64,000 bases of DNA from Terriglobia bacterium (GCA_020072565.1 JAIQGI010000014.1:16327-80326); one strand, 5' to 3'; positions 12,263 through 64,000 are shown, numbered from the stretch's first letter. Notes: generated by a model from the letters alone, not told the origin. Translations and numbers: made by a program.

Positions 12263-13411
12263 TCACGCCTTTTGCGGTTTTGCGACCATGCCGCCAGCAG
12301 ACGATTCATGCGATAGGTCCATGCGCTCCCGATAGCGCTCAAATCCCAGATCCACGAGACGCCGGATCAGCCGGTCAAAAGGCACACCGCAGGCGTTCCA
12401 CAACTTGGGATACATGCTGATGCTGGTAAATCCCGGCATGGTATTGATCTCGTTGAGCCAGACAGCGCCCGATTTGCGATCCAGGAAAAAATCCACGCGT
12501 GCCAATCCTGACCCGTCGATCGTCCGGAAGGCGCGCAGCGCCAGATCCCTGACGGCTTTGGCCTTGTCGTCGACGATGTCGGCGGGAATCTGAACCCGGC
12601 TGTCGGGATTGGCGTACTTGGCCTCATAATTGTAAAACTCGCAAGCCGGAACCACTTCGCCGACCACGGAGGCTTCGGGAGTGTTGTTGCCGAGCACGGC
12701 ACATTCCAGCTCTCTGGCATCAATCCCCTTCTCGATGATAATCTTGTGGTCGAACTGCGCCGAGGAAAGGATCGCATCATCAAATTCGCCTGCATGATGG
12801 ATCTTGCAGACACCGACCGAGGAGCCAAGATTGGCAGGTTTCGAAAAGACCGGGTAGCCGAATTGAACCTCGATCTCGTGCCGAAGGCTATCCAGCCTCT
12901 GTTCCAGGCCGCGCGAGGATTCCACCCGAAACGGGACGATCGGCAGCCGCGCCTGCGCAAAGAGGCGCTTCATCGCATCCTTATCCATCCCGACGGCAGA
13001 CGCAAGCACACCGCAACCCACGTAAGGCACACCGGCGATTTCCAGCAACCCTTGGATCGTTCCATCTTCGCCGTAAGGGCCGTGCAGCAGAGGAAAGATG
13101 ATCTCAGGGCGCCGATTCGTTTCTTCGCGTTGCGCATCAAATCCACCCGTCCAGGGCAGAACCTCTTCGCTGCCCCCACCCAACCTGACCCGATCCAGAA
13201 GCTCGGCCGGGAGCATGGCTCGCACCTCGGCGCTACTGGCGAGCTTGCCGCTCCTGGTAATGCCGATGGCCGTCACTTCGAATTCGCTCGGATCCAGCGC
13301 GCCGATCACCGATGCGGCCGACGACAGCGAGACCTCATGTTCGCTGGATCTGCCCCCGAACAGAATGCCGAGGCGTATCCTATGTTTCTCTTTCGCCATT
13401 CCCATCGCCAC
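12263..13411 (-). CDS. ddl: D-alanine--D-alanine ligase
   Basis: The N-terminal segment ([17 protein letters not shown]), the central segment ([38 protein letters not shown]) and the C-terminal segment ([11 protein letters not shown]) are classic Ddl. Confidence 0.85.
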
Positions 13412-45898: not shown

Positions 45899-45942
45899 TG
45901 GACTCTACGAATTCGGGGTGTCTGTAACTCGTTGAAAAGATT

Positions 45943-46017
<75 letters not shown>

Positions 46018-46205
46018 GCGATAACTATTGATATATCTATGCTTTAGCGTTTCATTAAATTTTCGTGCAACAAATGTACAACAGAATATTCCCCTCTGTC
46101 GTTTGGGCTTGTTGTACCGTGTTTGAGTCGCGCTTCAGCATGAGCGTACTTTACTTTTTGTTGCAGATTTTCGCAAGCGGTAATGCCTTCAGGTGGAGAT
46201 CGCCT

Positions 46206-46532
46206 TTATCGAACGATTTTCGAAAAATCTGCATAGTGCTGCCTGATAAACTTCACCATTGATCGCAAGGCCAGATCGGGATGAACCCTGTCAAGGGTAG
46301 GTTGTCTGACGTGATAGGACTGTAATGTACCGTTCTCTTTTATCTGCCACACGAGAACGCTTGATGATTCCTTCCCGGGACGTTTGATTGCTTCCAGCCG
46401 GAACTTCCTGGACCCACCTTTGGCCTCTAGCTGAAACCCGATTGTTCGAACCACCTCGTACGGTTCCGTGATCGCGTCTTCTGTGGACTTGAAGAGTTCT
46501 CCAAGCGTTCGCTCATGCTCTTGTTTTTTCAT
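46206..46532 (-). CDS. hypothetical protein
   Basis: The 108-aa ORF has a good SD (aaggag) 7 nt upstream of its ATG. Confidence 0.45.
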   Translation of the reverse strand: MKKQEHERTLGELFKSTEDAITEPYEVVRTIGFQLEAKGGSRKFRLEAIKRPGKESSSVLVWQIKENGTLQSYHVRQPTLDRVHPDLALRSMVKFIRQHYADFSKIVR

Positions 46533-46725
46533 GCCCTGCTCCTTTGAGGTCCGATGGGGTCTGATTCTATCACAATGCAGCCTTCGCCCTCGAAAACTCT
46601 GCTCTGTAGAGGCTCAGGTTGAACGATCGCCCTTCGAGCGGGCAGCGATGTATGACCGAAATCCGCGTCCCCAGCGCTGCTCACGTCGGGGGCCAGGTTG
46701 CCTAATGTGGCGTTTGCCGCATCCG

Positions 46726-46771
46726 TTCCAGCGGGCCCAGTCACCGAAGACTGAGCCCGCTGGAATTTTTT
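46726..46771 (+). terminator. strong plus-strand Rho-independent terminator inside the minus-strand element
   Basis: The stem ttccagcgggc and gcccgctggaa (11 bp) has an inner pair cagtc/gactg and a 6-nt loop, and is followed by TTTTTT (46766-46771). Confidence 0.55.
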
Positions 46772-47062
46772 GCCGCAGGCCCGGCCGGAGGGGGTGCCTC
46801 ATGACCCTGCGCTTATGCGCAGCCAGGCCCACGGTGCCCGGTGACTGCAGCCGGGCGGTTTGGCTTAAGCGATAGCCGCTGGCGAATCTGTTGCGCCTTC
46901 GGCAATCGCCCGGCGAAACTGAAAAACCATGAGTCCGTCCGGGCGCTTAACGCCTGCGATCAGTTCCCAGCCCAGGGCGCCCAACGGATTGAGGTCTGCC
47001 ATCTCGTCCAAAACCTCGAAACGATATTCCCACTTCATTTCGTGCCTCCTGTTGTTTGACTA

Positions 47063-47623
47063 CTACATTTGGCCAAGAGCCGCCGCAAGGACCCGATCAA
47101 AACGGTAAAACGGCATTGAGACGGATTCCGATTCCTCGAGGCGCTCGATCCACTTGGTGATTGTCAAAATGATTTCAGTTGGATCCTCGCACGCCTCGCA
47201 CTGCCGGAGCACCGCTGCCAGTTCGGTTCTCAATTCCGAGTTCTCCGGGAGTTGAGCACACACGGCGCCAACAACGTTGCCAAAGGAGCCACAAACCGCG
47301 CTCAACGCGCGATGGAGCTTGTCCTTCGTTGCCCGCAGCTGCGGCACAAGATCCGCCGTCAACGCGTCACGACGGGCAATAGCCGCCTCGAGCTCCGCCT
47401 TATGAACCGCGTCGCGTTCGGCCCAAAGTTCTTCACAAACCTGGCGGGAATAACTGCCGTCTTTGGCGAGGCGTAGCGATTCCAGCTGCTCAGCTTCGCG
47501 TTGCGCCTCGTGCCACTTGGGCCGAATCGCAGCAAATTCGCGCTGCAGGTCCGCTCGCACTTTTTGAAGTTCCCTCACCTTGGCAATCCATTTTTTCGCC
47601 TCGTCCTTTTTTGCAAATAGCAT
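47063..47623 (-). CDS. hypothetical coiled-coil protein
   Basis: The 186-aa ORF is highly charged and helical, with no known motif. Confidence 0.4.
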   Translation of the reverse strand: MLFAKKDEAKKWIAKVRELQKVRADLQREFAAIRPKWHEAQREAEQLESLRLAKDGSYSRQVCEELWAERDAVHKAELEAAIARRDALTADLVPQLRATKDKLHRALSAVCGSFGNVVGAVCAQLPENSELRTELAAVLRQCEACEDPTEIILTITKWIERLEESESVSMPFYRFDRVLAAALGQM

Positions 47624-47633
47624 TTCATCTCCT

Positions 47634-47885
47634 TTAGCGGTCTCGATACCGCCGCTGCAACCATTGTTCGTTCATCGCCCGTTGCCGTTCCGCATCTAAC
47701 GTCAGGCCCCGGTGAAATTCGACTTGCGCTTTTGCTGCACGAAAGATTTGCTTAGCCTCATGCGCCTTACGCCAGCGCGCAAACGGTGCCGCATAAAGCC
47801 GGGTGATGCGCAGCCAAAGCGCGCGGACCTGATTTCGAATTTTTCGGCGCAGCCCCCTCAGGCGCATATTCCCCTCCCATACCAC
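47634..47885 (-). CDS. hypothetical small basic protein
   Basis: The 83-aa ORF is Arg-rich. Support is weak. Confidence 0.25.
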   Translation of the reverse strand: MVWEGNMRLRGLRRKIRNQVRALWLRITRLYAAPFARWRKAHEAKQIFRAAKAQVEFHRGLTLDAERQRAMNEQWLQRRYRDR

Positions 47886-48418
47886 TCAACCCATGCTGCC
47901 TCCGGCCAAAACAACCGATCTATTGTTTGCGCCGAAATGACAACACGCCAAGTGGGGCCCGTTTGCGTGCGGCAGAGGCTTTCCAGATGTGCACCGATTC
48001 TCTGAACGCGCGGCCAATTATCACGAATCATTACTCCGGCCCGTGCGAGAATTTCGTCCAGGTCGAGATGAATTCCGACGGTTCCGCAAAGTTGTATCCG
48101 CGACCCCAGATTGACTGCGTCGGTTTGCTCGGGATCGGGATCCATAAAATCCCAGGTGGGAGACACAACCCCGCGCAGGTGGCGATCGGCACAGAGTCTC
48201 ACTTGGATCATCACCGCAGGCAGACCAACGAGTTCAGCCACGACATAGTGTCCAGCCTCGTGAAAACTCACTCCGGCGATCGAATCGGCCTCTGGAGCGG
48301 TTTCGTAAAAAATTTGTTCCGCCCAGGGCCCGCCGCAATCGATGAGCGCGCGGCCTTGCGCTTCCCTGAGAAGTTCCGCTTTTGCATTGGCGAGTTGTGC
48401 CTCTAGGGTTTCCGTCAT
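47858..48418 (-). CDS. putative zinc metallopeptidase (HEAGH motif)
   Basis: The 186-aa product contains SFHEAGHYVVAELVG, a HExxH motif in an FtsH/ImmA-like context. Confidence 0.45.
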   Translation of the reverse strand: MTETLEAQLANAKAELLREAQGRALIDCGGPWAEQIFYETAPEADSIAGVSFHEAGHYVVAELVGLPAVMIQVRLCADRHLRGVVSPTWDFMDPDPEQTDAVNLGSRIQLCGTVGIHLDLDEILARAGVMIRDNWPRVQRIGAHLESLCRTQTGPTWRVVISAQTIDRLFWPEAAWVEWYGRGICA

Positions 48419-48663
48419 GCGTTCACCTGGCTCAGGAAATAGGCGCCAAGCGCGTATACCTTGGCACTGTCTGCAAAAGTTTCGCTGTCCAGCTCTGAGT
48501 TAATCAACCCGACTTCTCTTTTCAAGCGGGTGTACTCCGCTTCGGCATCAGGAGTGAATGCACCCGCCGCGCGAGCGTCGGCCAGCAGCTCATGCGCCCG
48601 ACAAAGTTTTTTCGTTTTTTCCTGCCTCAGTTGTCTCTCTTCAAGCAATAGATTTCGCATTTC
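48415..48663 (-). CDS. hypothetical protein
   Basis: The ORF is trimmed to the internal Met MRNLLLEERQ to avoid overlap with the terminase gene. The product is coiled-coil. Confidence 0.3.
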   Translation of the reverse strand, partial: EMRNLLLEERQLRQEKTKKLCRAHELLADARAAGAFTPDAEAEYTRLKREVGLINSELDSETFADSAKVYALGAYFLSQVNA

Positions 48664-48712
48664 AGTTCCCCTTTCCGAAGTCGAAGTTAGTAAACATGAC
48701 CCCTCCTCATTG

Positions 48713-50656
48713 TCAGCGATTAAGCCAGCCGCCCCGCCCGGGATCGCCGAGCCAGCCCCGTGTTCTCTCGCCCAAAAAGGACTCATTGCGCTCGCGATTT
48801 AACGCCAGGCCGAGCCGTGCTTTTTCATCTGGATCCTGACTTGCGGCGGTCAACTCTTTGGATCTCAAGGCGTCCATCCTGTCCGCGTGCGCGTTCAGCT
48901 TTATCCCGGACATGTGGAGGCTTTGGAGCGCAGCGAAGTTGTAGCACGCAACGTCCAGGACTTCATTTCGTACTCCCGGCGCTTTGAACCACTCCCGGAC
49001 CGCAAAGCCTTTCGAGTATCGGACCCTCACCGTCTCGCTTGTGAGCTGCTCGAAAAAGCTACGATCTGCCGTCATCGGAAAGTGCATAAAGCCCGGACCC
49101 GGATCGAGAATCCTCAAATGGCTTGCGATCCAATCTTTGCAGGGGTCAACGCCCACAATGAACATGGGGCTTTTATCCTTCCCGCGGCCCGCTCTCCGCG
49201 GCCAAACGGGATGACGCCCGGCTTGGCCCTTGATGGCATAGACGCGCCGGCGAAGCCTATCCCGAGTGAACTGATAGACGGCCGCGGTTGCATATCCCGA
49301 GTCAACGCAGCACGCAGAGATCAGGAGTTTCGCGCCGAATTCGTGCGTAAATTCCGAGGTCAGAATCCGGTCAAGGTCTCGCCAAACCTCCGGCCGCATC
49401 GGATCGCCGCGGATGATGTTGTATTGGATCTGCCAGCACTCTTCATCACGCCCCCAGCCAAAAACGCCAACCTCGAGGCGATCCGTTTGGACGTCCACGC
49501 CCGCGGTCAAAAGCGCCACCCCTGCCGGCAGCGTCGCGCCAAATGGCTCCCGTCTCGACAAGAGGAGTTCGACGTCGAGCTTTTCCGAATGTGGTTCCTC
49601 CCAGGATTCCGCCAGGACTGTGTTGATAAAAACTCGGAGACGTTCCGGGCTCTTACTCGCTCTGATGAAATTGGCGGCCAACTTCGGCCAGGTCGTCCAT
49701 GGGGAAGCCAGGGCGTTAATGTGAAACCCAGCCGCCCGGCCTTCCCCCGGTGATTCCGCCCGCCATTCCCCGCGCTCCAGCATAGCCGGCTTGTGTCGGT
49801 CCTCGATTTTGCCGTTGCACAACTCACATTTGTAAAAGGCCTCTGCCGGCTTCCCTTGCGGCCATTCAACGCCGCTCCATTTCAGCGTCTGAAATCCCTG
49901 GCAATGCGGACATGGAACCCAATATTGGCGTTTGTCGCTTTCCTTGTACGCGGCCTCGATCCGGGACACGCCCTTTACCGTTGGAGTGGAGATCATGCAG
50001 ATTTTGCGATTGGCAAACGTCTCGCTGCGTGCGATTGCCAAATCACAAGGGTCGCCCTCAGCTACCGATCCGCCTTCAGCGCCGGCCGCGCCCATCGCGC
50101 TCGCGGGGTAGGCGTCCACTTCGTCAAGGATGATGTAACGCGCCGGCATGCTGCGAAGCCCTGCCGCGCTGTTTGCTCCGCAAAACGCAGCATATCCGCC
50201 AGGAAACGATTTTGTCTGAATGGTATTGTCAGCGGCGCGCGTCTCGGTCCTGCAGATGCGGTCTCGGAGCTCGGGCGTAGTTTGGATCAGTGATGTAACG
50301 CGCTGCTTTGAAAAACGTGCGGCCAATTCGACCGTGGGCTGGACCAGAAGCGCTGGGCCAGGTGCAAGGTGAATGACGAGCCCCAGCAGGTTTAGAAGCG
50401 CCTCAGATCCGCCGATCTGTGAAGGCTTAACGAACACGGTTCGCTCGCTACCACCATTCGGGCTCATGCTGTCCATTACTTCGCGCATGAACGGGACTCT
50501 GGAAGTCCGCCATTTGCCGGGCTCGCCGGCCGAAGTGTGGCTCAGGATTCGATAGCGATCCGCCCATTCAGAAACCGTCAACAGCGGTTCCGGCCGGATT
50601 GCGCGGGCCACAATTCCCCGGATTTCATTTGCCTTCGAGAGCGTCGGCGAGTCCAT
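48713..50656 (-). CDS. phage terminase large subunit, GpA family
   Basis: The 647-aa product has an N-terminal ATPase (TVFVKPSQIGGSEALLNLLG; Walker B ARYIILDEVDAYP) and a Cys cluster (CPHCQGFQ...CELCNG) typical of lambda-GpA-like terminases. A C-terminal nuclease-like region follows. Confidence 0.7.
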   Translation of the reverse strand: MDSPTLSKANEIRGIVARAIRPEPLLTVSEWADRYRILSHTSAGEPGKWRTSRVPFMREVMDSMSPNGGSERTVFVKPSQIGGSEALLNLLGLVIHLAPGPALLVQPTVELAARFSKQRVTSLIQTTPELRDRICRTETRAADNTIQTKSFPGGYAAFCGANSAAGLRSMPARYIILDEVDAYPASAMGAAGAEGGSVAEGDPCDLAIARSETFANRKICMISTPTVKGVSRIEAAYKESDKRQYWVPCPHCQGFQTLKWSGVEWPQGKPAEAFYKCELCNGKIEDRHKPAMLERGEWRAESPGEGRAAGFHINALASPWTTWPKLAANFIRASKSPERLRVFINTVLAESWEEPHSEKLDVELLLSRREPFGATLPAGVALLTAGVDVQTDRLEVGVFGWGRDEECWQIQYNIIRGDPMRPEVWRDLDRILTSEFTHEFGAKLLISACCVDSGYATAAVYQFTRDRLRRRVYAIKGQAGRHPVWPRRAGRGKDKSPMFIVGVDPCKDWIASHLRILDPGPGFMHFPMTADRSFFEQLTSETVRVRYSKGFAVREWFKAPGVRNEVLDVACYNFAALQSLHMSGIKLNAHADRMDALRSKELTAASQDPDEKARLGLALNRERNESFLGERTRGWLGDPGRGGWLNR

Positions 50657-51101
50657 TTAAGTGTCCGAGAATTTCCGTTGATAAAAGTTGACGCACCTTT
50701 GCCGGATCCGTTTCGATCGCCAGCGGAGCAGACAGCCGCTCTGGAATCGTCAAGAGTCCGTCTTTGTGCTGCGCGAAAATGTTAGTCAGGGTGTTCTTGA
50801 CCGTGGCTTGTTCGATCAGCTCGCTTGCCTTCTGGAGAAACTCCAGCCGGCGAAGTTTGGCAAGGAAGGTTTCCTTCATGAAAACGGCCTCGTTGTAATT
50901 TTTGGGGTCGCACCCTTCTTCAAATCCCTGCTCCATCCGGTCAAGAATGGCATCCGATGCAGCAACGTCGATGCGGCCATTCTTCAAAACGAGGAGTCTT
51001 TTTTGTTTCCACTTGGTGACGGCACTCGGAGTCACGCCGCGGTGCCCCGCGTATTCCTTCGCCGTCTCCATGGTTGGATTTTTAAGCCTTGTCTTTTTCA
51101 T
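50625..51101 (-). CDS. HTH DNA-binding protein, possible terminase small subunit
   Basis: An N-terminal HTH-like segment (KEYAGHRGVTPSAVTKWKQKRLL) is present. The call as a terminase small subunit is a positional inference from the ORF lying directly upstream of, and overlapping, terL. Confidence 0.35.
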   Translation of the reverse strand: MKKTRLKNPTMETAKEYAGHRGVTPSAVTKWKQKRLLVLKNGRIDVAASDAILDRMEQGFEEGCDPKNYNEAVFMKETFLAKLRRLEFLQKASELIEQATVKNTLTNIFAQHKDGLLTIPERLSAPLAIETDPAKVRQLLSTEILGHLNGLADALEGK

Positions 51102-51224
51102 CGAGCCTCACCGGATTTTCCGATTTCCTGGGTTTCGGACCCCTTCGCCTCGGGAAGTTGTGCCACACATTCCACCCGAGGGCGCTTGGCCTCCAGTAGG
51201 ACCCAAGCCTTGCCCCTGCAACAG

Positions 51225-51401
51225 TTAGCGCCTATCATCTTTTCGCCCTTCCTTGGCCACGATGCGCGAGCCAGCCCCGAAGGCCCGCAGCACAAGTTCA
51301 ACGCGATTCTGAAAGCGTTGGCCAGGAGTGCGCCGCACTCTTACTTTCAGCCGGCGGATCCGCGGCTTCTGGTCCTCAAGCAGTGTCGGTTGCGGGTTCA
51401 T
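51225..51401 (-). CDS. small basic hypothetical protein
   Basis: The 58-aa ORF has a GGAGG SD 7 nt upstream of its ATG. It is translationally coupled (ATGA) to the upstream small ORF. Confidence 0.35.
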   Translation of the reverse strand: MNPQPTLLEDQKPRIRRLKVRVRRTPGQRFQNRVELVLRAFGAGSRIVAKEGRKDDRR

Positions 51402-51598
51402 TGCTTGGCCTCCGTGACCACTACCGGCCAGGTCATGCCCCAGGAATGCACGCGGCGCCACAATCGGCCCTCGGGATCGCGGAAGACAACCATCTTCGGA
51501 GTCTCCCATAGGATCTCTGCGACCTCGTGACCATCGATGACATCGGGTCTTTGAGTACCGACTAACACCCGGTTTGCAGCGTCGACGTAGCGCCCCAT
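51398..51598 (-). CDS. small hypothetical protein
   Basis: The 66-aa ORF has a GGAGAAG SD upstream of its ATG. Confidence 0.35.
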   Translation of the reverse strand: MGRYVDAANRVLVGTQRPDVIDGHEVAEILWETPKMVVFRDPEGRLWRRVHSWGMTWPVVVTEAKQ

Positions 51599-51625
51599 GT
51601 GTCACTTCTCCGTGCTTTCTGCGTA

Positions 51626-51704
51626 TCTTTCGTTTCTTTCGTAAGTCCCTGCACTGTCCAATGCAGCTCTGACAGGGGTAGCGCAGTACGAAAGAAACGA
51701 AAGA
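51626..51704. repeat. 18-bp perfect inverted repeat with tandem gaaagaaac iterons and nested hairpin (candidate replication origin)
   Basis: tctttcgtttctttcgta (51626-51643) is the reverse-complement of tacgaaagaaacgaaaga (51687-51704). The right arm contains (gaaagaaac)x2, and the spacer holds a ctgca/tgcag hairpin. The structure lies immediately downstream of the DUF3987 replication gene. Confidence 0.4.
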
Positions 51705-51710
51705 AACGAA

Positions 51711-53102
51711 CTAATCGCGCGTAGCACTATGCCCCCTCGCCCCTACGGCCAACCAGCGGACCACGGGCCGACCGGCAGTCTGTTCCGTCCTCGACACCGC
51801 GCTGCCCGTGTCAGCCAGCATCGTAAGCGCCCGGTCGATTTCGCCGGCGGACTTGTTCCGAGCAAATAACCCGGAGATCTGCGTACGACTCATCCCCTCC
51901 GCGACAGAGCGCAGGGCGCGGAGAATCTCATCCGCCACAGGATCGCCCAACTCTGCGCCGAAGACATATCGCGCGGAGGCCTCGGCATATTCCCACAGGG
52001 CCGCCGCGGCTCGGACGTGCTCACCACGGATAGCCTGCGAGAGATCCAACAAGGCATACAACATCGACAGCCTGAGCACCTGTGCCTCGGCCCGCGATGT
52101 CGCGGCACCCAAGAGCCCAGGGTGCCCTTCGGAAAGATCCGCGTAGATTTCATGCCAGACGGCGCGGCCGTCGTCAGAGCGATGCATCGGGCCGACCGCG
52201 CGGGAATGTTCCACGGCCTGCATCAGCCGCAACTGCAGCGCAGCCAGGTCCCCATCGGGTGTGCCACCATCGGGTAGGATGCGCGCGCGGCGCACGCACA
52301 GCCACAAATGCCGATTTGCGAAGCCATTGCCAAGTTCCGTCCGATCGAGATAGCGGCGCACCTCGTCGCGCGTGATGTGCCCGATGATTGAAATGTGCGC
52401 ATCTGTGGCCCGGAGGGGATTGTTTTTCGTGGCGAGCCGCAGTTGTCCATCGTCCCAGGCCTCGCGGATCCGCGCGGACAGGGTGTTGCCCTCGCGGGCT
52501 ATGACTCGCAGCACGCTGGCATACTCAGGTTCAACGACGAGCAAGCGCTTGTCCGTGACCCCGGGATCCCGGGTAACGGTTTGGTAGTCCGTGACGCGGC
52601 CATGGTCGCGGATCGGCTCCTGCTCCTCGATCGCGTCTCGCACGAGCCATACGAGCCCCTCGCCAGAAGATAGCCCATGGTGGATGTGCTCTCGATCATA
52701 CGCTGCGTCGACCTGAGCGCAGAGCGAGCGCACCCGCCCCCAGGAGGTTCCCTTTCTGCCCTTCGCGGTGGCGCCCACCAGAACCACATACAAATTTGCC
52801 GCGTGACGGTCGCCCTCTACGAGGTAGCAAGGGCCGCGGCCGATCATGGATCCGGCCGCGACGAGCACTTGCGACAGCAGCGCCACAGGATCGGCCTCCG
52901 TGGCTGGCCCGAGGGCGCGAACTATCTCGCCAGCGAGGCCGTGGTATGCTTCAGGCGCCGGCGGTTCCGGCCATTGGGCTACGGATGGCGCCACAGCGTG
53001 CAGTGGTGGGGGCCCAGCGATCGCGGCAAGCTCGTCGCCTACCTCCGGCTCCAGGCTCTTGAGGGGATCACACTGAGGCATCGTCATGCCGCCGCCCTCC
53101 AC
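51711..53102 (-). CDS. DUF3987-like replication protein (phage/plasmid primase C-terminal-associated domain)
   Basis: The 463-aa product has an overall DUF3987 pattern. It lies directly downstream of, and overlaps, the CHC2 zinc-finger ORF. No canonical Walker A motif was seen. Confidence 0.45.
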   Translation of the reverse strand: MEGGGMTMPQCDPLKSLEPEVGDELAAIAGPPPLHAVAPSVAQWPEPPAPEAYHGLAGEIVRALGPATEADPVALLSQVLVAAGSMIGRGPCYLVEGDRHAANLYVVLVGATAKGRKGTSWGRVRSLCAQVDAAYDREHIHHGLSSGEGLVWLVRDAIEEQEPIRDHGRVTDYQTVTRDPGVTDKRLLVVEPEYASVLRVIAREGNTLSARIREAWDDGQLRLATKNNPLRATDAHISIIGHITRDEVRRYLDRTELGNGFANRHLWLCVRRARILPDGGTPDGDLAALQLRLMQAVEHSRAVGPMHRSDDGRAVWHEIYADLSEGHPGLLGAATSRAEAQVLRLSMLYALLDLSQAIRGEHVRAAAALWEYAEASARYVFGAELGDPVADEILRALRSVAEGMSRTQISGLFARNKSAGEIDRALTMLADTGSAVSRTEQTAGRPVVRWLAVGARGHSATRD

Positions 53103-53620
53103 TCACGGTAGGCGTTGATCTGTTGGCTCTCGGTTCCAATGTCAATCTGGTCGAGCAGGTACTCCACCTGGTCGAGACCTCGATATGCCGCAGCCAGCCA
53201 GGTCCAGGCGCGCTCATCCTGCGCATCGCGGTGCAGACGCTGCAGAGCCGCGGCCTCAAGACCGAAGCGCCCGAGATATTCGTCGCGCAGCTCGCGGCCC
53301 AGTTCACGGGCCCAGGTTTGTAGACCTTCCTTGATCGCGCGCCGGCGGAGGATTTCAGGATCCGGCGCCGGCGGCTTTCCGGGTTCAAGGCCGAAATATT
53401 TCAATGCTGATACAAAATCGCATCCGCGAAGTTTTTGAACGAAAGCGATCTTGTCCCCATGTTCGGCACAGGCAAAGCAGTTGAAGCCCTTTTCGTCGTG
53501 GCACGAGAAGCCCGTGCTGGAGTCACAGAATGGACAGGCCCCCCGGCCGCGGCGCAAGGACTTGAGGCCCTCGCCGTGGAAGATCGAATCCCAGGTTGGC
53601 AGGTCGTGTGAGTCGATCAC
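53084..53620 (-). CDS. CHC2-type primase zinc-finger protein
   Basis: CPFCDSSTGFSCHDEKGFNCFACAEHGDKIAFV matches the DnaG/P4-alpha CHC2 zinc-ribbon pattern (CPFH.EKTPSF......HCFGCG.HG..I.F). Confidence 0.55.
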   Translation of the reverse strand: MIDSHDLPTWDSIFHGEGLKSLRRGRGACPFCDSSTGFSCHDEKGFNCFACAEHGDKIAFVQKLRGCDFVSALKYFGLEPGKPPAPDPEILRRRAIKEGLQTWARELGRELRDEYLGRFGLEAAALQRLHRDAQDERAWTWLAAAYRGLDQVEYLLDQIDIGTESQQINAYREWRAAA

Positions 53621-54195
53621 GATCGCCGCTCCGCAAGCCGTTGTTTCAAAATCTCGCAGGCCTCAGTCCATGGGGTTTCATCGGGGAGATCACTGATAAG
53701 CTCTAGTTCCGCAGCCAGCCTTATGTGGCGAAGGCCGTCTTCCACGTTCTTCTGTTGCAGGTGGTCAACCATCGTCTGCCTGGCATGAGCCTGGATCCAT
53801 GAGGGCAACGGGACCGCAACGAAGCCAGGCTCGGGAACGTAGCTGCCTTCAGGCAGCGCCAGGGTTGTGACGTCCACATAATCTTTGACCCTGTTCCAAT
53901 CGGCTCGGACTTTTTCCAGAGGGATGAGCTCGGGATGCCAGGAGATCACATTGCCGATAGCCCAGCGGGTGCGATGGGCATTGCAGACAAACCAATCTTC
54001 GTAGTACCTTTCATCGCGATCAACCTGGAACACGATCCCATCAGTGCCCGCACACCACGGGCAACCGCCGAAATAATCGGCCTTTTCTGGAATTGGAGGT
54101 TTTTCTTGCGATTCAGAATCGGTTTTTGTAGAATTCATTTGTCCATCCTTTAGGTTTTGGCCCGGTTCGCGCCGGGCCGTTTTATTTTCGGACAT
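53617..54195 (-). CDS. hypothetical protein
   Basis: The 192-aa ORF has a Cys pair (GGCPWCAG) and no assignable family. Confidence 0.4.
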   Translation of the reverse strand: MSENKTARREPGQNLKDGQMNSTKTDSESQEKPPIPEKADYFGGCPWCAGTDGIVFQVDRDERYYEDWFVCNAHRTRWAIGNVISWHPELIPLEKVRADWNRVKDYVDVTTLALPEGSYVPEPGFVAVPLPSWIQAHARQTMVDHLQQKNVEDGLRHIRLAAELELISDLPDETPWTEACEILKQRLAERRS

Positions 54196-54199
54196 GCCA

Positions 54200-54532
54200 C
54201 TACGCTCGCGCCGCGGCCGATTCAGCTTCCCACTGCGGCCGGATCCGGTTTCGCCTCAGGTACTCGTCCAGGTCTGCCTTGTCGAAATAGATTTTTTTGC
54301 CAGCGGGTTTGAAGTGTGCGATGAGGTTCTTTGACGTCAGCTGGTACAGATGGCTTTTGCTGATTTCCAGGTACTTTGCCGCGGACTCCAGATCGAACGG
54401 GCCCGCGTTCTCCGCACCAGTCCGCAGTGCCAAGCTGATGATGCGATCCAGCTTTGCTTCGATCCGGGTTATTTGCTTTTCCGTCATACTCGCGCGCCTC
54501 CTGTTAGCAAGCGCAAGTATTTCAAACATCAA
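54200..54532 (-). CDS. excisionase-family HTH DNA-binding protein
   Basis: LESAAKYLEISKSHLYQLTSKNLIAHFKPAGKKIYFDKADLDEYL fits the excisionase/AlpA-type HTH signature. Confidence 0.5.
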   Translation of the reverse strand: MMFEILALANRRRASMTEKQITRIEAKLDRIISLALRTGAENAGPFDLESAAKYLEISKSHLYQLTSKNLIAHFKPAGKKIYFDKADLDEYLRRNRIRPQWEAESAAARA

Positions 54533-54563
54533 AAAGGATAGGTATCTGAAATATAGGGCAGGC

Positions 54564-55262
54564 TTATTTCGTAGGTCGGATCAGTCTCTCCTGCAGTTTT
54601 GTTGCCGCTCTCATCCAGTCATTGGCGGGCGTACCCGAATTGTAGGCCATCTTTTTAGGTTCGAGTACGAGCAGAATTTCATCATTTTTTGCGCCAACCG
54701 CTTTTGCGTCCAGCGTGCGGAGATACTTGGCCCAATCCGGAACATGGGGTTTATCCTTGTTTTGGCCGACTTGTTTTAATCCAATCTTGAGAATTTCGAT
54801 ATGCGCCTCAAGGCTTGCGTTTGGGTCCAGCGCAAGTGCCATGGGAGCGAACACGTAATCCCCAGCCTCAATTAGATGGACCGACCAGAATCCCAGATTG
54901 CGCGGCCGCGCCACGGCCGGATTGATGAGCACTGGCATGCGATATTTTTTGACCGAGTGTTTCATGTAAACAACGAATTCCTCGCTCCCGGGATCACAAT
55001 CAAAATTTCCTGGCTCTATTGGTCCTGGTGATTCCAGGTCGGAATTTGGATTGGGTGACATCCATTCTTGGTACGTGTGTTTGCTGTACCATTCAACCGT
55101 CCTTTTGTGTTCTCGCTCCCAGTCCTGGCGGTAATCGTCACACCGGCGAAGAAATTCCCAACGCCAGAGTTCGTCCGGCAGGCTTGCCGGGTATGCCTTG
55201 CTGTTGCGCCAGTCCGGGATTCCCCAGCGACGCCGATATTGCAGATCAGTCTTTTTTGACAT
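54564..55262 (-). CDS. hypothetical protein (integrase-adjacent accessory gene)
   Basis: The 232-aa ORF is Trp-rich at its N-terminus (WRWEFLRRCDDYRQDW). Its 3' end overlaps the integrase 5' end. Confidence 0.4.
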   Translation of the reverse strand: MSKKTDLQYRRRWGIPDWRNSKAYPASLPDELWRWEFLRRCDDYRQDWEREHKRTVEWYSKHTYQEWMSPNPNSDLESPGPIEPGNFDCDPGSEEFVVYMKHSVKKYRMPVLINPAVARPRNLGFWSVHLIEAGDYVFAPMALALDPNASLEAHIEILKIGLKQVGQNKDKPHVPDWAKYLRTLDAKAVGAKNDEILLVLEPKKMAYNSGTPANDWMRAATKLQERLIRPTK

Positions 55263-56355
55263 TGGATTTTCGCTTTCCGTCGCTCAAGTTCGGTATAAGG
55301 TCAACTGCCTGTCTCTTTTTCGCGTCAACGATCTTCGCGTAAATCTCGGTTGTGCTTAGGTCCCGATGGCCCAGCAGCTTCGACATGGTGTAAATGTCCA
55401 TGCCATAGGTGAGCCCCATGGTTGCGAACGAGTGCCGCGCGGTGTGGAATGAAACGCGTTTTGCGATCCCCGCGCGCTTTACCCAGCGCTTGATTGCCTT
55501 GTCGATGCTTTGCTGCGCCGGCAGTTTGAATACCGCGTCCGGGTTTGCTTCGCCGGTGATGTTGGGCGAGTACTCCTGGCCTTTCTGCGCTCCGAGGATC
55601 TTCCCTGCCTGCCTGGATAGTGGCAACTGTTCCGGTGAGCCAGTCTTGACCATGATGAAGTCAATCGAGTAGTGCGGCCCGGCCTTGTGCACCTTGTCCC
55701 ATGTCAGGGCTCGCACATCGGAATAGCGCAGTCCGCAGAAACCGGAAAACAGGAAGGCGTCCTTGACGGCCTGGTTGCCACACTCGGTCCGCTCCAACAG
55801 TTGCAATTCCTTCAGTGTGAGAAACTCGCGCCGGTTTTCCTGCTTTTTGATCCCGATACCATCGCCGGGGTTGCGGGTCAGGATCTTGTCGTGGACGGCC
55901 TGATGCAGCGCCGTCTGGATCCGGGCCAGGTACACCCCCGCGGAGTTCTGTTTCAGTCGTGAAAGAAGGTAGTCGCGGAATGAGCGGACGTATTCCTCGG
56001 TGAGCCGGTCAAAAGAAAGAGACCCGTCCGCGAAGGCCTCCAGGTGCTGGATAGCGTTTTGCCATACCAGCTGGGTATTAGGGGCCCGCTTCGTTTCTGC
56101 GATCGTCCTGCAGTAGGCCAGGAAATCATCCTGTTGCCGCGTTGGCGAGGGGAATCCGTGCTCCCCTTGCACATGCTCGAGCCGGCGCTTTGCGAGGATG
56201 TCCCCGGCCAGCTCGCGGGTCCGCTTGTCCTGCTTTGGGTTTCCGGTGAGGTAAAGATTGAGATACTCCAGTTGCCGGCGGCCGCGGTCGTAAAAGTCCA
56301 GGTATAAGGTCCGGGTGCCGGCCGCCGTCTTGCGTTCTCGAAGGCTGATCTTCAC
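55246..56355 (-). CDS. tyrosine site-specific integrase
   Basis: The 369-aa product has N-terminal arm-binding, SAM-like and catalytic domains, with motifs LRYSDVRALTW and HTARHSFATMGLTYGMDIYTMSKLLGHRDLSTTEIYAKI. Confidence 0.8.
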   Translation of the reverse strand: MKISLRERKTAAGTRTLYLDFYDRGRRQLEYLNLYLTGNPKQDKRTRELAGDILAKRRLEHVQGEHGFPSPTRQQDDFLAYCRTIAETKRAPNTQLVWQNAIQHLEAFADGSLSFDRLTEEYVRSFRDYLLSRLKQNSAGVYLARIQTALHQAVHDKILTRNPGDGIGIKKQENRREFLTLKELQLLERTECGNQAVKDAFLFSGFCGLRYSDVRALTWDKVHKAGPHYSIDFIMVKTGSPEQLPLSRQAGKILGAQKGQEYSPNITGEANPDAVFKLPAQQSIDKAIKRWVKRAGIAKRVSFHTARHSFATMGLTYGMDIYTMSKLLGHRDLSTTEIYAKIVDAKKRQAVDLIPNLSDGKRKSNVKKD

Positions 56356-56553
56356 GATTCACCTCGATGGCGAATAACAACCGCCTTTGTATGTAATTCA
56401 CCTTAGAGAATATCACGCGTACAACAACTGTACAACAAAAATAAACAAGAACCGGCAAAAATCAGGTAAACATCCAAAAACAGGAAGGCCGTAAACACTG
56501 GCGGTTGTTACTGTTAATTGTTTATGGTTTTTCTTACTTGGGGCTGGAAAATA

Positions 56554-60250: not shown

Positions 60251-60440
60251 ACACCCCTCTCCAGCCACGATCGAGTCTTCGATTTTCCGTGGGCAAGCTT
60301 ACCAGCCTGTTGCGGCAGAGGCAAGCGATATGGCGCAGCCGGCACTATCAGGCACCACCAAACACACGCGCCACACAAGAAATCTCTGTGGGTTTCGTGG
60401 TTGTTGATTTGGCTGCAGCGCGATCTCTTCGTCGAGATCC

Positions 60441-61526
60441 TTAGAAGTTGATCACCTCGATCTCGCGCACATCCCGCACATACTCTTCCGCGGGCTGCGG
60501 GTACCGGTACAGCCTGCCTTCGAAATTTCTCAGCACAATTTCGCGCTCGCCGAAATCGACGACATATTCCGGCATCAGCGGGATTTTGCCGCCGCCGCCC
60601 GGAGCATCGATCACGAATTGAGGCACGGCAAAGCCGGTGGTGTAACCCCGCAACGCCTGCATGATCTGAAGGCCCATTTCCACGCGCGTGCGAAAATGGT
60701 TGGTGCCGCGCGTGAGATCGGATTGGTAGAGGTAGTAAGGGCGCACGCGCATCATCAGAAGCTTGTGCATGAGCTCCTTGATGGTTTCAGGATCGTCGTT
60801 GACTCCCCGCAACAGCACCGTCTGGCAGCCGACCGGAATTCCGGCATTCGCGAGGCGCTCGCAGGCTGCCTTGGCCTGGGGCGTCACCTCGCGCGGGTGG
60901 TTAAAATGGGTGTTGAGGTATATGGGATGATACTTCTTCAGCATGTTGCAGAGGTCGTCGGTGATCCGGCTGGGGAGAACACACGGGAACCGGGTTCCGA
61001 TGCGGATGATCTCCACGTGCGGGATGGCGCGCAGCCTGGAAATGATGCTCTCCAGCTTTTCGTCGTTGACCATCAACGGGTCGCCGCCCGAAAGCAGAAC
61101 GTCGCGGATCTCCGGGTGCGCCCGGATATATTCGATGCCGATGGCAATGGTCCGCTCCGTAATGTCGCTGGTGCGGCCCACCATTCTCTTGCGCGTGCAG
61201 AACCGACAGTACATCGGGCATCGGTCGGTGATCAGAAGCAGCACGCGATCGGGGTAGCGATGGGTGAGACGGGTAACCGGGCTGTCATCGTCCTCATGCA
61301 GCGGATCTTCCGGGGCGTCGACGTCCTGCAGCTCCTGAATGGATGCGATCGACTGCATCCAGATGGGATCACCCTTCTCCCGAATCAGATTGTAGTAATA
61401 GCGCGGAATCCTCATGGGATAGACGGCGCGGGCCTCGTTGATGCCATCAACATCGGCGTCGAAATCTTCGCTGATGGTTTCTCCTTTGGTGACGCTGTTG
61501 CGCAGATCAAGCATCCACTGTTCCAT
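60441..61526 (-). CDS. lysine 2,3-aminomutase family radical-SAM enzyme (KamA/AblA/EpmB-like)
   Basis: A CxxxCxxC cluster (CPMYCRFCTRKRM) sits in a KamA-like context (LLLITDRCPMYCRFCTRK...LSGGDPL). The 361-aa length is within the KamA/EpmB range. Confidence 0.75.
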   Translation of the reverse strand: MEQWMLDLRNSVTKGETISEDFDADVDGINEARAVYPMRIPRYYYNLIREKGDPIWMQSIASIQELQDVDAPEDPLHEDDDSPVTRLTHRYPDRVLLLITDRCPMYCRFCTRKRMVGRTSDITERTIAIGIEYIRAHPEIRDVLLSGGDPLMVNDEKLESIISRLRAIPHVEIIRIGTRFPCVLPSRITDDLCNMLKKYHPIYLNTHFNHPREVTPQAKAACERLANAGIPVGCQTVLLRGVNDDPETIKELMHKLLMMRVRPYYLYQSDLTRGTNHFRTRVEMGLQIMQALRGYTTGFAVPQFVIDAPGGGGKIPLMPEYVVDFGEREIVLRNFEGRLYRYPQPAEEYVRDVREIEVINF

Positions 61527-61541
61527 GGACCAAACCTCTCC

Positions 61542-62045
61542 TTACCGGGAAAATCTCTTGACAAAAATCAGCTTGTCGTCACCGACGTCGTAGAAATCCG
61601 GTATCCGCGACGCCTCTTGGTAACCCAGGCGGCGATAGAATCCGACGGTCTTGCCGTAGGATTCCTTGGAAGAAGTCTCAAGCACGAGAAGCCTTCCACG
61701 TTCCTCGCCTACTCTGTTTTCGACGTAATGCATTAGCGCTCGCCCGACACCCCGCCCCTGAGTTCCGGGATGGGTAGCAATCCAGTAGAGATCAAAGGTT
61801 CCCTTGGTGAGCGGGGTCGGTCCCCAGCAGGCATAACCGCACGTGTCCCCGCCCTCGCATTCGGCGACGACAATTCGATAGTCCTTCTGATCGGGGTCGC
61901 TGAGGTAGGTATCCACAAGCTCCAGCGCACAGTCGATCTCGGCCGGGCTGAAGTTGCCGACGTCTCTTATGATCCGGGCGACAGCTGGGCGGTCGCCCGC
62001 GATCAGGTTGCGAATCGAATGTATATGAGAGTCAGGAGCAGGCAT
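61542..62045 (-). CDS. GNAT-family N-acetyltransferase
   Basis: An acetyl-CoA-binding motif (QGRGVGRALMHYVENRV) is present. The ~168-aa product is taken from the internal Met MPAPDS. Confidence 0.6.
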   Translation of the reverse strand: MPAPDSHIHSIRNLIAGDRPAVARIIRDVGNFSPAEIDCALELVDTYLSDPDQKDYRIVVAECEGGDTCGYACWGPTPLTKGTFDLYWIATHPGTQGRGVGRALMHYVENRVGEERGRLLVLETSSKESYGKTVGFYRRLGYQEASRIPDFYDVGDDKLIFVKRFSR

Positions 62046-63077
62046 AGGCAGTGGTGGGAACCTTTGTGCCTCGTTCCAAGGCCGATTGAGTGATCCGAGC
62101 AACCAGGTCAGTGTAAGTCATTCCCGCAGCCCGCGCCGCACGCACAAATCCTGCCTGCGGAGAGAGATCGGGATTCGGATTGACTTCGAGCACATAGATG
62201 TTCCCGTCGGCGTCCGTCCTCATGTCGATACGGGCATAATCCCGGCACCCGATGCACTTGCTGCTTCTCAGGGCGATGAGCTTGATCCGGTTTTCCAGGC
62301 GCGCCGGTATCTCCGCAGGACATACCGGCACCGTGCATTGACAGACAATGCTCTCCTCATCCCACTTCGCACGGTAGCTCACGATCCGCGGCTCATCCGC
62401 CGGCATCCGGCTGAAATCGATCTCCGAGATCGGCAGCGCCTGCGGCTCCCGGTCGCCCAGAACAGCGACGTTGAATTCCCTCCCCTCCAGATACTCATCG
62501 ACCAGAGCATCCTGCTGATAAACATCATGGATGTAAGCGACCTGCTTCTGCAACTGGGCGAGATCGTGGCATACCGACTTGGAGTTGATGCCCAGGCTGG
62601 CGTCCTCATGCACCGGCTTGACGATGACCGGGAATCGGCGCTTCGCCCGCGGCCTGAGCCGCTGGCCCAGGGCACACAGATATCCGCGCGGCACCGGGAT
62701 TCCGGTCGACTGCAGAACCTGCTTGACCCGGAACTTGTTCAATGCCAGACCCAGAGCCAGCGGTCCCGATCCGGTATACGGAATGTTCATGAGCTCGAGC
62801 ATCCCGGCGATGCACATTTCGAGGTTGCAGTCCCCCTGAATCTCCTCGCAGAGGTTCCAGACAAACCTCGGCGCCATGCGGTAGAAGGTCAAAACCAGGT
62901 CCTTCGAAAACTGATCGACCGCGAGCACATATGGGCTGTATCCCAACTCGCGCAGACTTTCCTCGATCGCACCCACCTCCTCGCGAATGAGATTGGCCGG
63001 ATAGACCTTCTCCTCCGACCACGGCAATTCCCTTAGGGTGGCTGCGTTGTACAGGATGATGCAGTCGGATCTCACCA
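62032..63077 (-). CDS. ATP-grasp ligase, D-Ala-D-Ala ligase-like (copy 1)
   Basis: A central Ddl-like segment (GMLELMNIPYTGSGPLALGLALNKFRVKQVL) and a C-terminal motif (LEVNPNPDLS) are present. The start is set at the internal Met MVRSDC, overlapping the stop of the upstream ATP-grasp gene as TGATG. Confidence 0.6.
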
Positions 63078-63992
63078 TCAGTTTAGCCCGCAGCGCCGGC
63101 ACGCGATGTCCAGAACCGCATTGATCAGCTGGTTGTAATTCATTCCCGCAGCCCGCGCCGCTTTGGGGAAGCACGAGTTGTCCTCCGGCCGAGGCAGAAT
63201 CCCGGGCAATGGGTTGAGTTCCAGGATGTGCGGGCAGTTCGATGCATCGAGACGAATGTCGATGCGGCACCAGTCACGGCACCTCATGGTTCGGTAGGCA
63301 CCCAGGCAAATGCGTTCGATCTCCGCCCTGGCTTCCGCGCTGATGCGTGCGGGGCATTCGAAAATCTGCAGCGGATTTGAACTCTGATCCCAGATCCATT
63401 TGGCCTCATATGAGTAGATCGGATTCATCCCCTTCGGAAGTGACTCGAACCGGATCTCGACAATCGGAAGCACACGAGCATCCTCACCGTTTCCCAGGAT
63501 GGCCACCGTGAACTCGCGCCCCGCCAGGAACTCCTCCACCAAGGCCGGCTGCCGGAAGCGCTCAAGCACCCAGGCGATTCTGGCCCGCAGGTCCTCTACG
63601 GTTGCCACCAGCGAGTCATTACGGATCCCGATGCTGGAGCCTTCGAATAGGGGCTTGACCAGAAGCGGGAAATGGAGGCTGTTGAAGGGCTGGTTCCGGT
63701 CCGCAACAACCCGGAAACGCGCGGTGGGCAGACCGTAATAGGCCAGTATCTCCTTGGCGCGCGACTTGTCCAGACAGAGATTCAACGTCAGCGGATCACT
63801 CGCCGTGTACGGAATGTTGAGGTATTCGAGAATTGAGGGGATGTGCCCTTCGCGGCAGGGGCCGAAACTCCCTTCGGCCATGTTGAAAACTATGTCCGGG
63901 CGGCTCTCGCGAAGCGCGTTGTAGGGGTCCTCGGCCGCATCGATCGGGATCACCTCGTGACGCTCCCTAAGGGCTCCCAGAACCGCATCCAC
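63078..63992 (-). CDS. ATP-grasp ligase, D-Ala-D-Ala ligase-like (copy 2)
   Basis: A central Ddl-like segment (GHIPSILEYLNIPYTASDPLTLNLCLDKSRAKEIL) and a C-terminal motif (LELNPLPGI) are present. This is the first gene of a four-gene minus-strand operon. Confidence 0.6.
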   Translation of the reverse strand: MDAVLGALRERHEVIPIDAAEDPYNALRESRPDIVFNMAEGSFGPCREGHIPSILEYLNIPYTASDPLTLNLCLDKSRAKEILAYYGLPTARFRVVADRNQPFNSLHFPLLVKPLFEGSSIGIRNDSLVATVEDLRARIAWVLERFRQPALVEEFLAGREFTVAILGNGEDARVLPIVEIRFESLPKGMNPIYSYEAKWIWDQSSNPLQIFECPARISAEARAEIERICLGAYRTMRCRDWCRIDIRLDASNCPHILELNPLPGILPRPEDNSCFPKAARAAGMNYNQLINAVLDIACRRCGLN

Positions 63993-64000
63993 GGTGTCCT

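Follow-up and report, generated by a model that had tools for sequence, protein, structure and literature searches.

A conserved operon of a lysine 2,3-aminomutase-like enzyme, two Ddl-type ATP-grasp ligases and a GNAT acetyltransferase may encode a pathway to N-acetylated beta-lysine peptides

Four co-directional genes lie at one end of a 64,000-nucleotide stretch of a Terriglobia bacterium genome (GCA_020072565.1, JAIQGI010000014.1:16327-80326), referred to here as the window. The open reading frame (ORF) listing and the sequence place them on the minus strand in the order AG1, AG2, GNAT and KamA-like, specifying two ATP-grasp ligases of the D-alanine--D-alanine ligase (Ddl) type, a small N-acetyltransferase, and a radical-SAM enzyme resembling the pyridoxal phosphate (PLP)-dependent lysine 2,3-aminomutase (LAM) (Table 1). 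The AG1 stop codon TGA (63078-63080) shares its A with the ATG of AG2, forming TGATG; the GNAT ATG lies 14 nt within the 3' end of AG2; and the KamA-like start follows the GNAT stop by 15 nt, with a Shine-Dalgarno sequence (GGAGAGG) 8 nt before it. An earlier note on this DNA, made from the sequence alone, had described a four-gene minus-strand operon with a TGATG junction and small overlaps, a description borne out by the ORFs and by their Pfam and NCBIfam labels; the AG1 start given there, at 63992, is an internal GTG, and the true ATG lies beyond the end of the window. Because the complete AG1 gene is preceded by a 530-bp intergenic region and then by divergent DUF2085 and MJ1491-like genes, it is the first gene of the operon, the 5' end and promoter of which fall outside the window.

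Table 1. Location of the module genes, of related genes in retrieved loci, and of other features of the window. Coordinates without a locus name refer to the 64,000-nt window, and L-numbered coordinates to retrieved loci.
Feature	Location	Strand	Remarks
AG1, Ddl-type ATP-grasp ligase	63078..64000	-	C-terminal 306 of 340 codons inside window
Full AG1, 340 aa	L001:7427-8449		identical contigs in public assemblies; ATG 102 nt past base 64000
AG2, second Ddl-type ATP-grasp ligase, 348 aa	62032..63078	-	Pfam, NCBIfam, alignments
GNAT N-acetyltransferase, 167 aa	61542..62045	-	Pfam Acetyltransf_7/1; PDB 2R7H family
KamA-like radical-SAM/PLP lysine 2,3-aminomutase, 361 aa	60441..61526	-	2A5H and NCBIfam matches
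KamA-pyrG spacer	60269..60440	-	free of terminator-like site
Conserved non-coding DNA, about 120 nt before AG1 ATG	L001:7307-7426		outside window; shared across Acidobacteriota
KamA::AG1 fusion, 708 aa	L053:4791-6917		single ORF; Nanoarchaeota metagenome-assembled genome
GNAT-like/APAH-like proteins	L070:9629-11386; L152:6268-8004; L153:6250-7980		Desulfovibrio mangrovi and uncultured lineages
AG::AG fusions (675, 724 aa), then Peptidase_S58	L158:670-3823; L159:7001-10432		no KamA nearby
AG2 homologue, 60% identity	L033:8001-9017; L037:8001-9038		Planctomycetes metagenome-assembled genomes
GRDB-like protein, 328 aa	L001:4748-5734		partial match, E 1e-7
Bona fide Ddl	12263-13411	-	NF002528, 420 bits vs cut-off 262
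Prophage-like or integrative element	~45940-56360		directly downstream of kdsD
tRNA-Gly(CCC)	45942-46016		possible attachment end of the element
GpA-type terminase	48713-50656	-	in the element
Integrase	55246-56355	-	in the element

The KamA-like protein aligns over residues 4-346 with the Clostridium subterminale lysine 2,3-aminomutase (2A5H; E 1.5e-120) and carries the Pfam domains Radical_SAM and LAM_C. Retained in this alignment are the CxxxCxxC motif, the PLP lysine K337, and R134, D293 and D330, which reportedly bind the carboxylate and epsilon-ammonium groups of lysine in the 2A5H enzyme (Lepore et al. 2005). The cluster cysteines and these four residues are invariant in 76 of the 76 module-linked KamA homologues aligned from all loci. 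In the window protein, Asp replaces the zinc ligand C268, and about 55 residues at the C-terminus (the Zn/multimerisation domain) are missing. The best-scoring NCBIfam model is the AblA-type LAM model TIGR03820, whose match stops at profile position 363 of 417 and reaches 483.5 bits, below the equivalog cut-off of 525.4; scores also fall short of the cut-offs for glutamate 2,3-aminomutase (416 vs 650), arginine 2,3-aminomutase (375 vs 600) and EpmB (TIGR03821; 242 vs 369 bits), and the general KamA family model TIGR00238 is passed (313 vs 199). A lysine 2,3-aminomutase active site, as the earlier note had proposed, is supported by the conserved residues, and the model scores place the protein nearest the AblA type rather than in a non-aminomutase clade, the outcome that the note had named as refuting its reading.

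The two ligases are paralogues (39% identity) that align full length with E. coli DdlB (E ~1e-33 for AG1 and 1e-32 for AG2) and match the Pfam domain Dala_Dala_lig_C (1.5e-36 and 2.2e-32, respectively). When DdlB functional positions were mapped on 81 AG1-type and 87 AG2-type sequences, K97, K144, E180, E187, K215, R255, D257, E270 and N272 (DdlB numbering) proved essentially invariant in both families; these conserved catalytic positions therefore indicate that AG1 and AG2 are both active ligases. The specificity positions are changed to non-Ddl states: H63 is replaced by an invariant Glu and Y216 by Trp in both families, an insertion takes the place of the E15 loop in both, S150 and G276 are retained in AG1 and become Ala and Asp in AG2, and S281/L282 read S/C in AG1 and A/G in AG2. 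The Glu at position 63 would suit a cationic substrate. Both proteins fail the Ddl model NF002378 (203.5 and 162.3 bits vs a cut-off of 243), and the window contains a separate, bona fide Ddl gene, adjoining phoH-like and holA genes, whose product is the housekeeping enzyme and shares 24-27% identity with AG1/AG2. These comparisons support the view that AG1 and AG2 are not cell-wall Ddl enzymes, with which the earlier note had allowed that they might cluster. The wider family is large, with 1,708 clusters (at 50% identity) matching AG2 at E<=1e-30 in an exhaustive HMMER search; an AlphaFold2 model of AG2, based on 12 aligned sequences, was of poor quality (pLDDT 60), and no conclusion was drawn from it.

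The closest solved relative of the acetyltransferase is PDB 2R7H (E 6e-33), a structural-genomics entry from Desulfovibrio G20 described as a 'putative D-alanine N-acetyltransferase of GNAT family', whose gene itself sits in a KamA-AG-AG-GNAT cluster; we guess that its name was probably borrowed from the adjacent Ddl-like genes. The acetyl-CoA pyrophosphate-binding loop Q/R-x-x-G-x-G/A reads QGRGVG in the window protein, and its glycines are kept across the aligned relatives. No match to the AblB model was obtained at E<=0.01, the best NCBIfam matches being weak and RimI-like, so that the absence of an AblB-family acetyltransferase from the locus stands as first noted. The 2R7H-type family is not exclusive to the module, since solitary paralogues (44-48% identity) occur elsewhere on six metagenome contigs (L123, L124, L128, L132, L135 and L147), where they follow sucB-lpdA or precede ccsA/hemA-like genes. 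A search of plasmids returned only distant solitary GNATs (32-38% identity) in unrelated contexts.

The distribution of the module was examined by a one-genome-per-species scan with an AG2 alignment, which gave 61 loci that were then searched with the four proteins by tblastn, and by a metagenome scan with a GNAT alignment, in which at least 570 of 600 candidate stretches were confirmed and 80 loci were kept. The complete four-gene set is present in about 70 of 147 distinct loci, in two gene orders, and the remainder are mostly incomplete contigs; such an arrangement goes far past chance expectation, and conservation, on which the earlier note had proposed that its operon be judged, thus extends across phyla. 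Each of the three conditions that the note had named as refuting its reading was checked, and all three outcomes favoured the note. About 38 Acidobacteriota species have the order AG1-AG2-GNAT-KamA, in most cases with pyrG and/or kdsA next in line, and all four genes are also found in Ignavibacteriales (L046) and Longimicrobiales (L051). Spirochaetales (L059) have them as KamA-AG1-AG2-GNAT; in Oleidesulfovibrio/Desulfovibrio, reached via 2R7H, a sigma-54 activator gene is followed by KamA, AG, AG and GNAT; and Woeseia has the arrangement KamA-AG-(AG)-deacetylase-GNAT. The module is also found in a Nanoarchaeota (DPANN) metagenome-assembled genome (MAG; L053) and in an unclassified low-GC MAG (L048). 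Among the 80 metagenome loci, GNAT adjoins AG2 and/or KamA on every contig of sufficient length, except for about 12-18 solitary GNAT paralogues in other contexts. Gene order and conservation together support one operon kept as a functional unit across phyla. As a separate observation, two Planctomycetes MAGs carry an AG2 homologue that has neither AG1 nor GNAT nor KamA within 8 kb of it, which could be the result of horizontal transfer, a binning artefact or stand-alone use.

Gene fusions, losses and replacements bear on how the four enzymes cooperate. KamA and AG1 form a single ORF in the Nanoarchaeota MAG, where two further AG paralogues and an Acetyltransf_3 GNAT follow; among relatives, AG::AG fusions (675-789 aa) and AG2::GNAT fusions (498-624 aa) are found, one of the latter directly after AG1 and KamA (L157). 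In L048 and L053 the 2R7H-type GNAT has been swapped for an unrelated Acetyltransf_3 GNAT, of the same family in both, and this substitution shows that an acetyltransferase function is under selection. GNAT is missing in three Acidobacteriota species (L017, L020, L021), which keep AG1-AG2-KamA and have a gap of 170-315 nt between AG2 and KamA at the usual GNAT place; the core of the module therefore consists of the ligases and the aminomutase. The sole recurrent extra gene encodes a protein of 576-585 aa, GNAT-like at its N-terminus, whose deacetylase domain is closest to acetylpolyamine amidohydrolases (APAH; E 1e-66 and 4e-66), and it lies beside or inside the operon in eight loci (L070, L071, L090, L109, L126, L142, L152 and L153). 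No other consistently linked gene was found in the neighbourhoods examined, and MFS or DMT (DMT_6) transporters are only occasional neighbours (L152, L153). Chance adjacency of the four genes, and the possibility that AG1 and AG2 are duplicates of a cell-wall Ddl, are both rejected because the module is conserved, its genes occur as fusions and a true Ddl exists separately. The flanks of the Nanoarchaeota cluster hold three proteins with PEP-utilizer domains and a ~460-aa protein lacking a Pfam match, which also adjoins solitary AG1-like genes in Woesearchaeota (L050, L052) and in which an SGGKDS-like FGKDS motif, recalling PP-loop ATPases, can be seen by eye.

The conserved non-coding DNA upstream of AG1 contains CTTGACA and TATACA separated by a 17-nt spacer, together with an upstream palindrome, CACAAGCT(C/T)TTGTG, and a further CTTGTG half-site, a region that is a candidate operator for a regulator of the module. 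The regulators themselves vary, being either a sigma-54 enhancer-binding protein (EBP) or a small MarR-like helix-turn-helix (HTH) protein, and in D. mangrovi a -24/-12 promoter (TGGCAT-N5-TTGCT) is accompanied by repeated GGAACA..TGTTCC sites. Rfam gave only tRNAs, and no riboswitch or leader RNA, in 140 kb of loci; no precursor peptide or conserved small ORF was found upstream of AG1 in any frame, the ~120 nt there being promoter DNA only; and PADLOC defence models gave 0 matches for all four proteins. At the other end of the operon, the KamA-like gene is separated by about 190 nt from pyrG-kdsA-kdsD. Since a scan of this part of the window for terminators and promoters found no terminator-like site between KamA and pyrG, and nothing exceeding shuffle expectation, transcription may run through the module into these genes.

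Based on these observations, we hypothesize that the operon encodes a pathway, complete in itself, whose end product is a di- or tripeptide of beta-lysine carrying an N-acetyl group, a proposal that we consider slightly likelier to be right than wrong. In the first step, which the sequence supports well, the short KamA-like enzyme would use radical-SAM/PLP chemistry to make beta-lysine from L-lysine. AG1 and AG2 would then each form one amide bond through an acyl-phosphate, their remodelled and more acidic pockets serving to join beta-lysine to one or two further amino-acid units; linkage through the carboxylate and/or one amine of beta-lysine would give a peptide of two or three units, if not a short oligomer. 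Of the two ligases, AG1 would probably be the first to act on beta-lysine, given its fusion to KamA in one archaeon. In the last step, the 2R7H-family GNAT would transfer an acetyl group from acetyl-CoA to a free amine, either on beta-lysine or on the peptide, and in many lineages the APAH-like enzyme would take the acetyl group off again; such a partner therefore points to an N-acetylated aliphatic amine, for example the N-epsilon of the beta-lysine unit. Beta-lysine would thus be the shared substrate, with one amide bond per ligase and a free amine capped by the GNAT. The three derivatisable groups of beta-lysine (one carboxylate and two amines) match the three modifying enzymes in number, a purely numerical argument that would agree with a di- or tripeptide capped at every group. 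The product probably stays cytoplasmic, because most modules have no dedicated transporter. Its likeliest roles, the weakest part of this chain, would be those of a stress-protective (compatible-solute-like) or polyamine-like metabolite, with which the lack of transporters and the place of the module in the core genome are consistent.

Several observations weigh against the proposed pathway. The substrates of the ligases are beyond reading from sequence. Acetylation is dispensable in the three Acidobacteriota species without a GNAT, and the MFS and DMT genes that flank some modules could mean that a product is exported. Control of the operon varies, from a sigma-70 promoter in Acidobacteria to sigma-54 and an EBP in Desulfovibrio, and neither a Na+ nor a c-di-AMP riboswitch was found in nine loci, so no signal of osmotic stress was seen there. 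Furthermore, relatives of the AG pair that lack KamA adjoin a Peptidase_S58 gene (L158-L160), two of them as AG::AG fusions, and the ligase pair is therefore not intrinsically bound to beta-lysine. On their gene content these S58-linked relatives show that the pair can serve other building blocks; Peptidase_S58 presumably includes the DmpA/BapA D-/beta-aminopeptidases, and the arrangement may represent a sister system of synthetase and hydrolase whose S58 linkage hints that the peptide begins with an unusual residue.

The alternative that survives best is modification of a macromolecule, in which the ligases would place beta-lysine on a protein (elongation factor P (EF-P), a ribosomal protein or another) or on the envelope, independently of EpmA, and the GNAT would acetylate the target. 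EpmB/YjeK likewise has no multimerisation domain (PMC2821294), as in the short KamA-like form, and the weak RimI similarity of the GNAT and the synteny of the module with kdsA and kdsD in Acidobacteria could be read in the same direction. However, the pyrG/kdsA synteny is restricted to Acidobacteriota among the loci compared, the aminomutase is closest to AblA-type LAM and fails the EpmB cut-off, and the ligases match small-molecule Ddl enzymes end to end. The module is moreover present in DPANN archaea, which lack EF-P and lipopolysaccharide (LPS), and a search of the loci found no epmA or efp in any module neighbourhood examined. This alternative is consequently unlikely, and the new EF-P modification route that the earlier note had suggested is disfavoured with it, even though the note was correct that the locus has no EpmA.

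A simpler scheme would have KamA and the GNAT make N-epsilon-acetyl-beta-lysine as analogues of AblA and AblB, with the ligases as mere neighbours. An aminomutase paired with an acetyltransferase is indeed the known two-enzyme osmolyte route (PMC3543383, PMC9337991), and an APAH-like partner suits an N-acetylated aliphatic amine. Yet the ligases are the most tightly linked genes of the module, the AG-AG-KamA set surviving the loss of GNAT; both are found fused to the enzymes of the scheme, as KamA::AG1 and AG2::GNAT; a separate housekeeping Ddl is present in the window; and the GNAT lies outside the AblB family. Plain N-epsilon-acetyl-beta-lysine synthesis is thus quite unlikely. Improbable to about the same degree is an exported antimetabolite, a 'Trojan-horse' beta-lysine peptide toxin against which the GNAT would give self-protection and which the deacetylase would activate on export. 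After 2R7H, the nearest solved GNATs are PA4866 (a phosphinothricin/methionine-sulfoximine acetyltransferase) and the tabtoxin resistance protein, the model search gave a weak match to streptothricin acetyltransferase, and transporters of the MFS or DMT type adjoin some modules; but these GNAT resemblances are weak (E 1e-3 to 1e-6), transporters and regulators of the kind found in antibiotic clusters are missing from most modules, and the conserved, core-genome-like position in about 38 Acidobacteriota species and the presence in minimal DPANN genomes do not fit a toxin. Synthesis of a beta-lysine polyamide by alternating ligase sites, as a cyanophycin-like store or polycation whose charge or turnover is controlled by acetylation and deacetylation, would find parallels in the AG::AG fusions with their dedicated Peptidase_S58, which resemble a synthetase/hydrolase pair, and in the sigma-54/NtrC-type control in Desulfovibrio, but it is very unlikely, as enzymes of the Ddl type are known to ligate dipeptides in a single turnover, neither a primer nor a granule-associated gene was found, and the S58 variant has no KamA.

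Extending the proposed acetylated beta-lysine peptide pathway to its full range, we suggest tentatively, as a claim somewhat likelier to fail than to hold, that the module makes an undescribed family of N-acetylated beta-lysine peptides in at least 7-8 phyla including DPANN, that these are cytoplasmic protective or polyamine-like compounds with their own acetylation/deacetylation cycle, and that AG1 and AG2 form a new, beta-amino-acid-ligating branch of the Ddl enzymes. If true, the Ddl scaffold would have been re-tooled for beta-amino-acid chemistry, and a function could be given to many proteins whose present annotation reads 'D-alanine--D-alanine ligase', 'lysine 2,3-aminomutase' or 'GNAT family', an annotation gain spanning Acidobacteria of the soil, sulfate-reducing bacteria, marine Woeseia and DPANN archaea. 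The module is carried by the cultured and genetically tractable Desulfovibrio alaskensis G20, for which a crystal structure of the GNAT exists and an archived transposon library has been described (PMC4045070). Its cluster (L068) should correspond to Dde_3041-3044, as the gene order matches the published annotation, in which Dde_3047 is a Ser/Thr phosphatase.

Elsewhere in the window and in the retrieved loci, two further features were seen. The element directly downstream of kdsD holds, besides its integrase and terminase, an HTH_17 excisionase-like gene and a primase/DUF3987 gene; the tRNA-Gly(CCC) gene may mark its attachment end, and the element recurs in several metagenome contigs (L001, L002). 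In L001, a gene with a partial match to GRDB (component B of glycine/sarcosine/betaine reductase) lies 1.7 kb upstream of the module.

Comparison with known systems helps to place the module. Full-text literature searches, some of which evidently did not match the comma-containing form 'lysine 2,3-aminomutase', returned no description of it; the sole literature match to a locus tag was the neighbouring phosphatase Dde_3047, the paper on the sigma-54 regulome of D. vulgaris does not mention the module genes, and none of the four proteins is covered by an NCBIfam equivalog. In microbial physiology, beta-lysine is known mainly as N-epsilon-acetyl-beta-lysine, which serves as an osmolyte, and as a modification of EF-P. 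With the AblA/AblB system of methanogens, green sulfur bacteria and Pelobacter, the module shares an AblA-type LAM start, an adjacent acetyltransferase gene and a presumably cytoplasmic product; it differs in its short aminomutase below the equivalog cut-off, in a 167-aa GNAT of the 2R7H family instead of AblB, and in two obligatory ATP-grasp ligases, often joined by an APAH-like deacetylase. As in EpmB/EpmA, a C-terminally shortened KamA-family enzyme would supply beta-lysine for an ATP-dependent ligation, whereas the aminoacyl-tRNA synthetase-like ligase EpmA and linkage to efp are absent, the EpmB score is low, and the module occurs in archaea.

Synthesis of N-acetylglutaminylglutamine amide (NAGGN) by AsnO and Ngg, a bifunctional GNAT and ATP-grasp protein, likewise combines N-acetylation with ATP-grasp ligation to give a small N-acetylated peptide solute, and AG2 relatives fused to a GNAT recall Ngg; this is a likeness of logic only, as the module has two ligases, both of Ddl type and encoded apart from the GNAT, a radical-SAM aminomutase supplies the building block, and no AsnO-type amidotransferase was found in any locus examined. 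AG1 and AG2 are full-length homologues of DdlB/VanA that share their ATP-grasp catalytic residues and, presumably, their acyl-phosphate mechanism; unlike these enzymes, they have lost the D-Ala1 triad (the E15 loop is replaced, Y216 is Trp and, in AG2, S150 is Ala), carry Glu for H63 and an altered C-terminal specificity loop, fail the family cut-offs and coexist with a true Ddl. The microviridin/graspetide systems (MdnD) have superficially the same content of two ATP-grasp ligases and a small acetyltransferase, yet the module has no conserved precursor ORF, its ligases are of Ddl type, and a lysine aminomutase is without a role in graspetides. The sole characterised relative is 2R7H, which belongs to the same GNAT family and the same type of gene cluster and differs in being a structural-genomics entry without an assigned substrate. 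The module fails the defining features of the AblA/AblB, Ngg, Ddl and microviridin systems; it is nevertheless not categorically new, lying within the known range of beta-lysine metabolite and ATP-grasp peptide ligase pathways, to which, if the proposed reading is true, it would add a third beta-lysine route and a widespread new metabolite class in which beta-lysine is ligated into a capped peptide.

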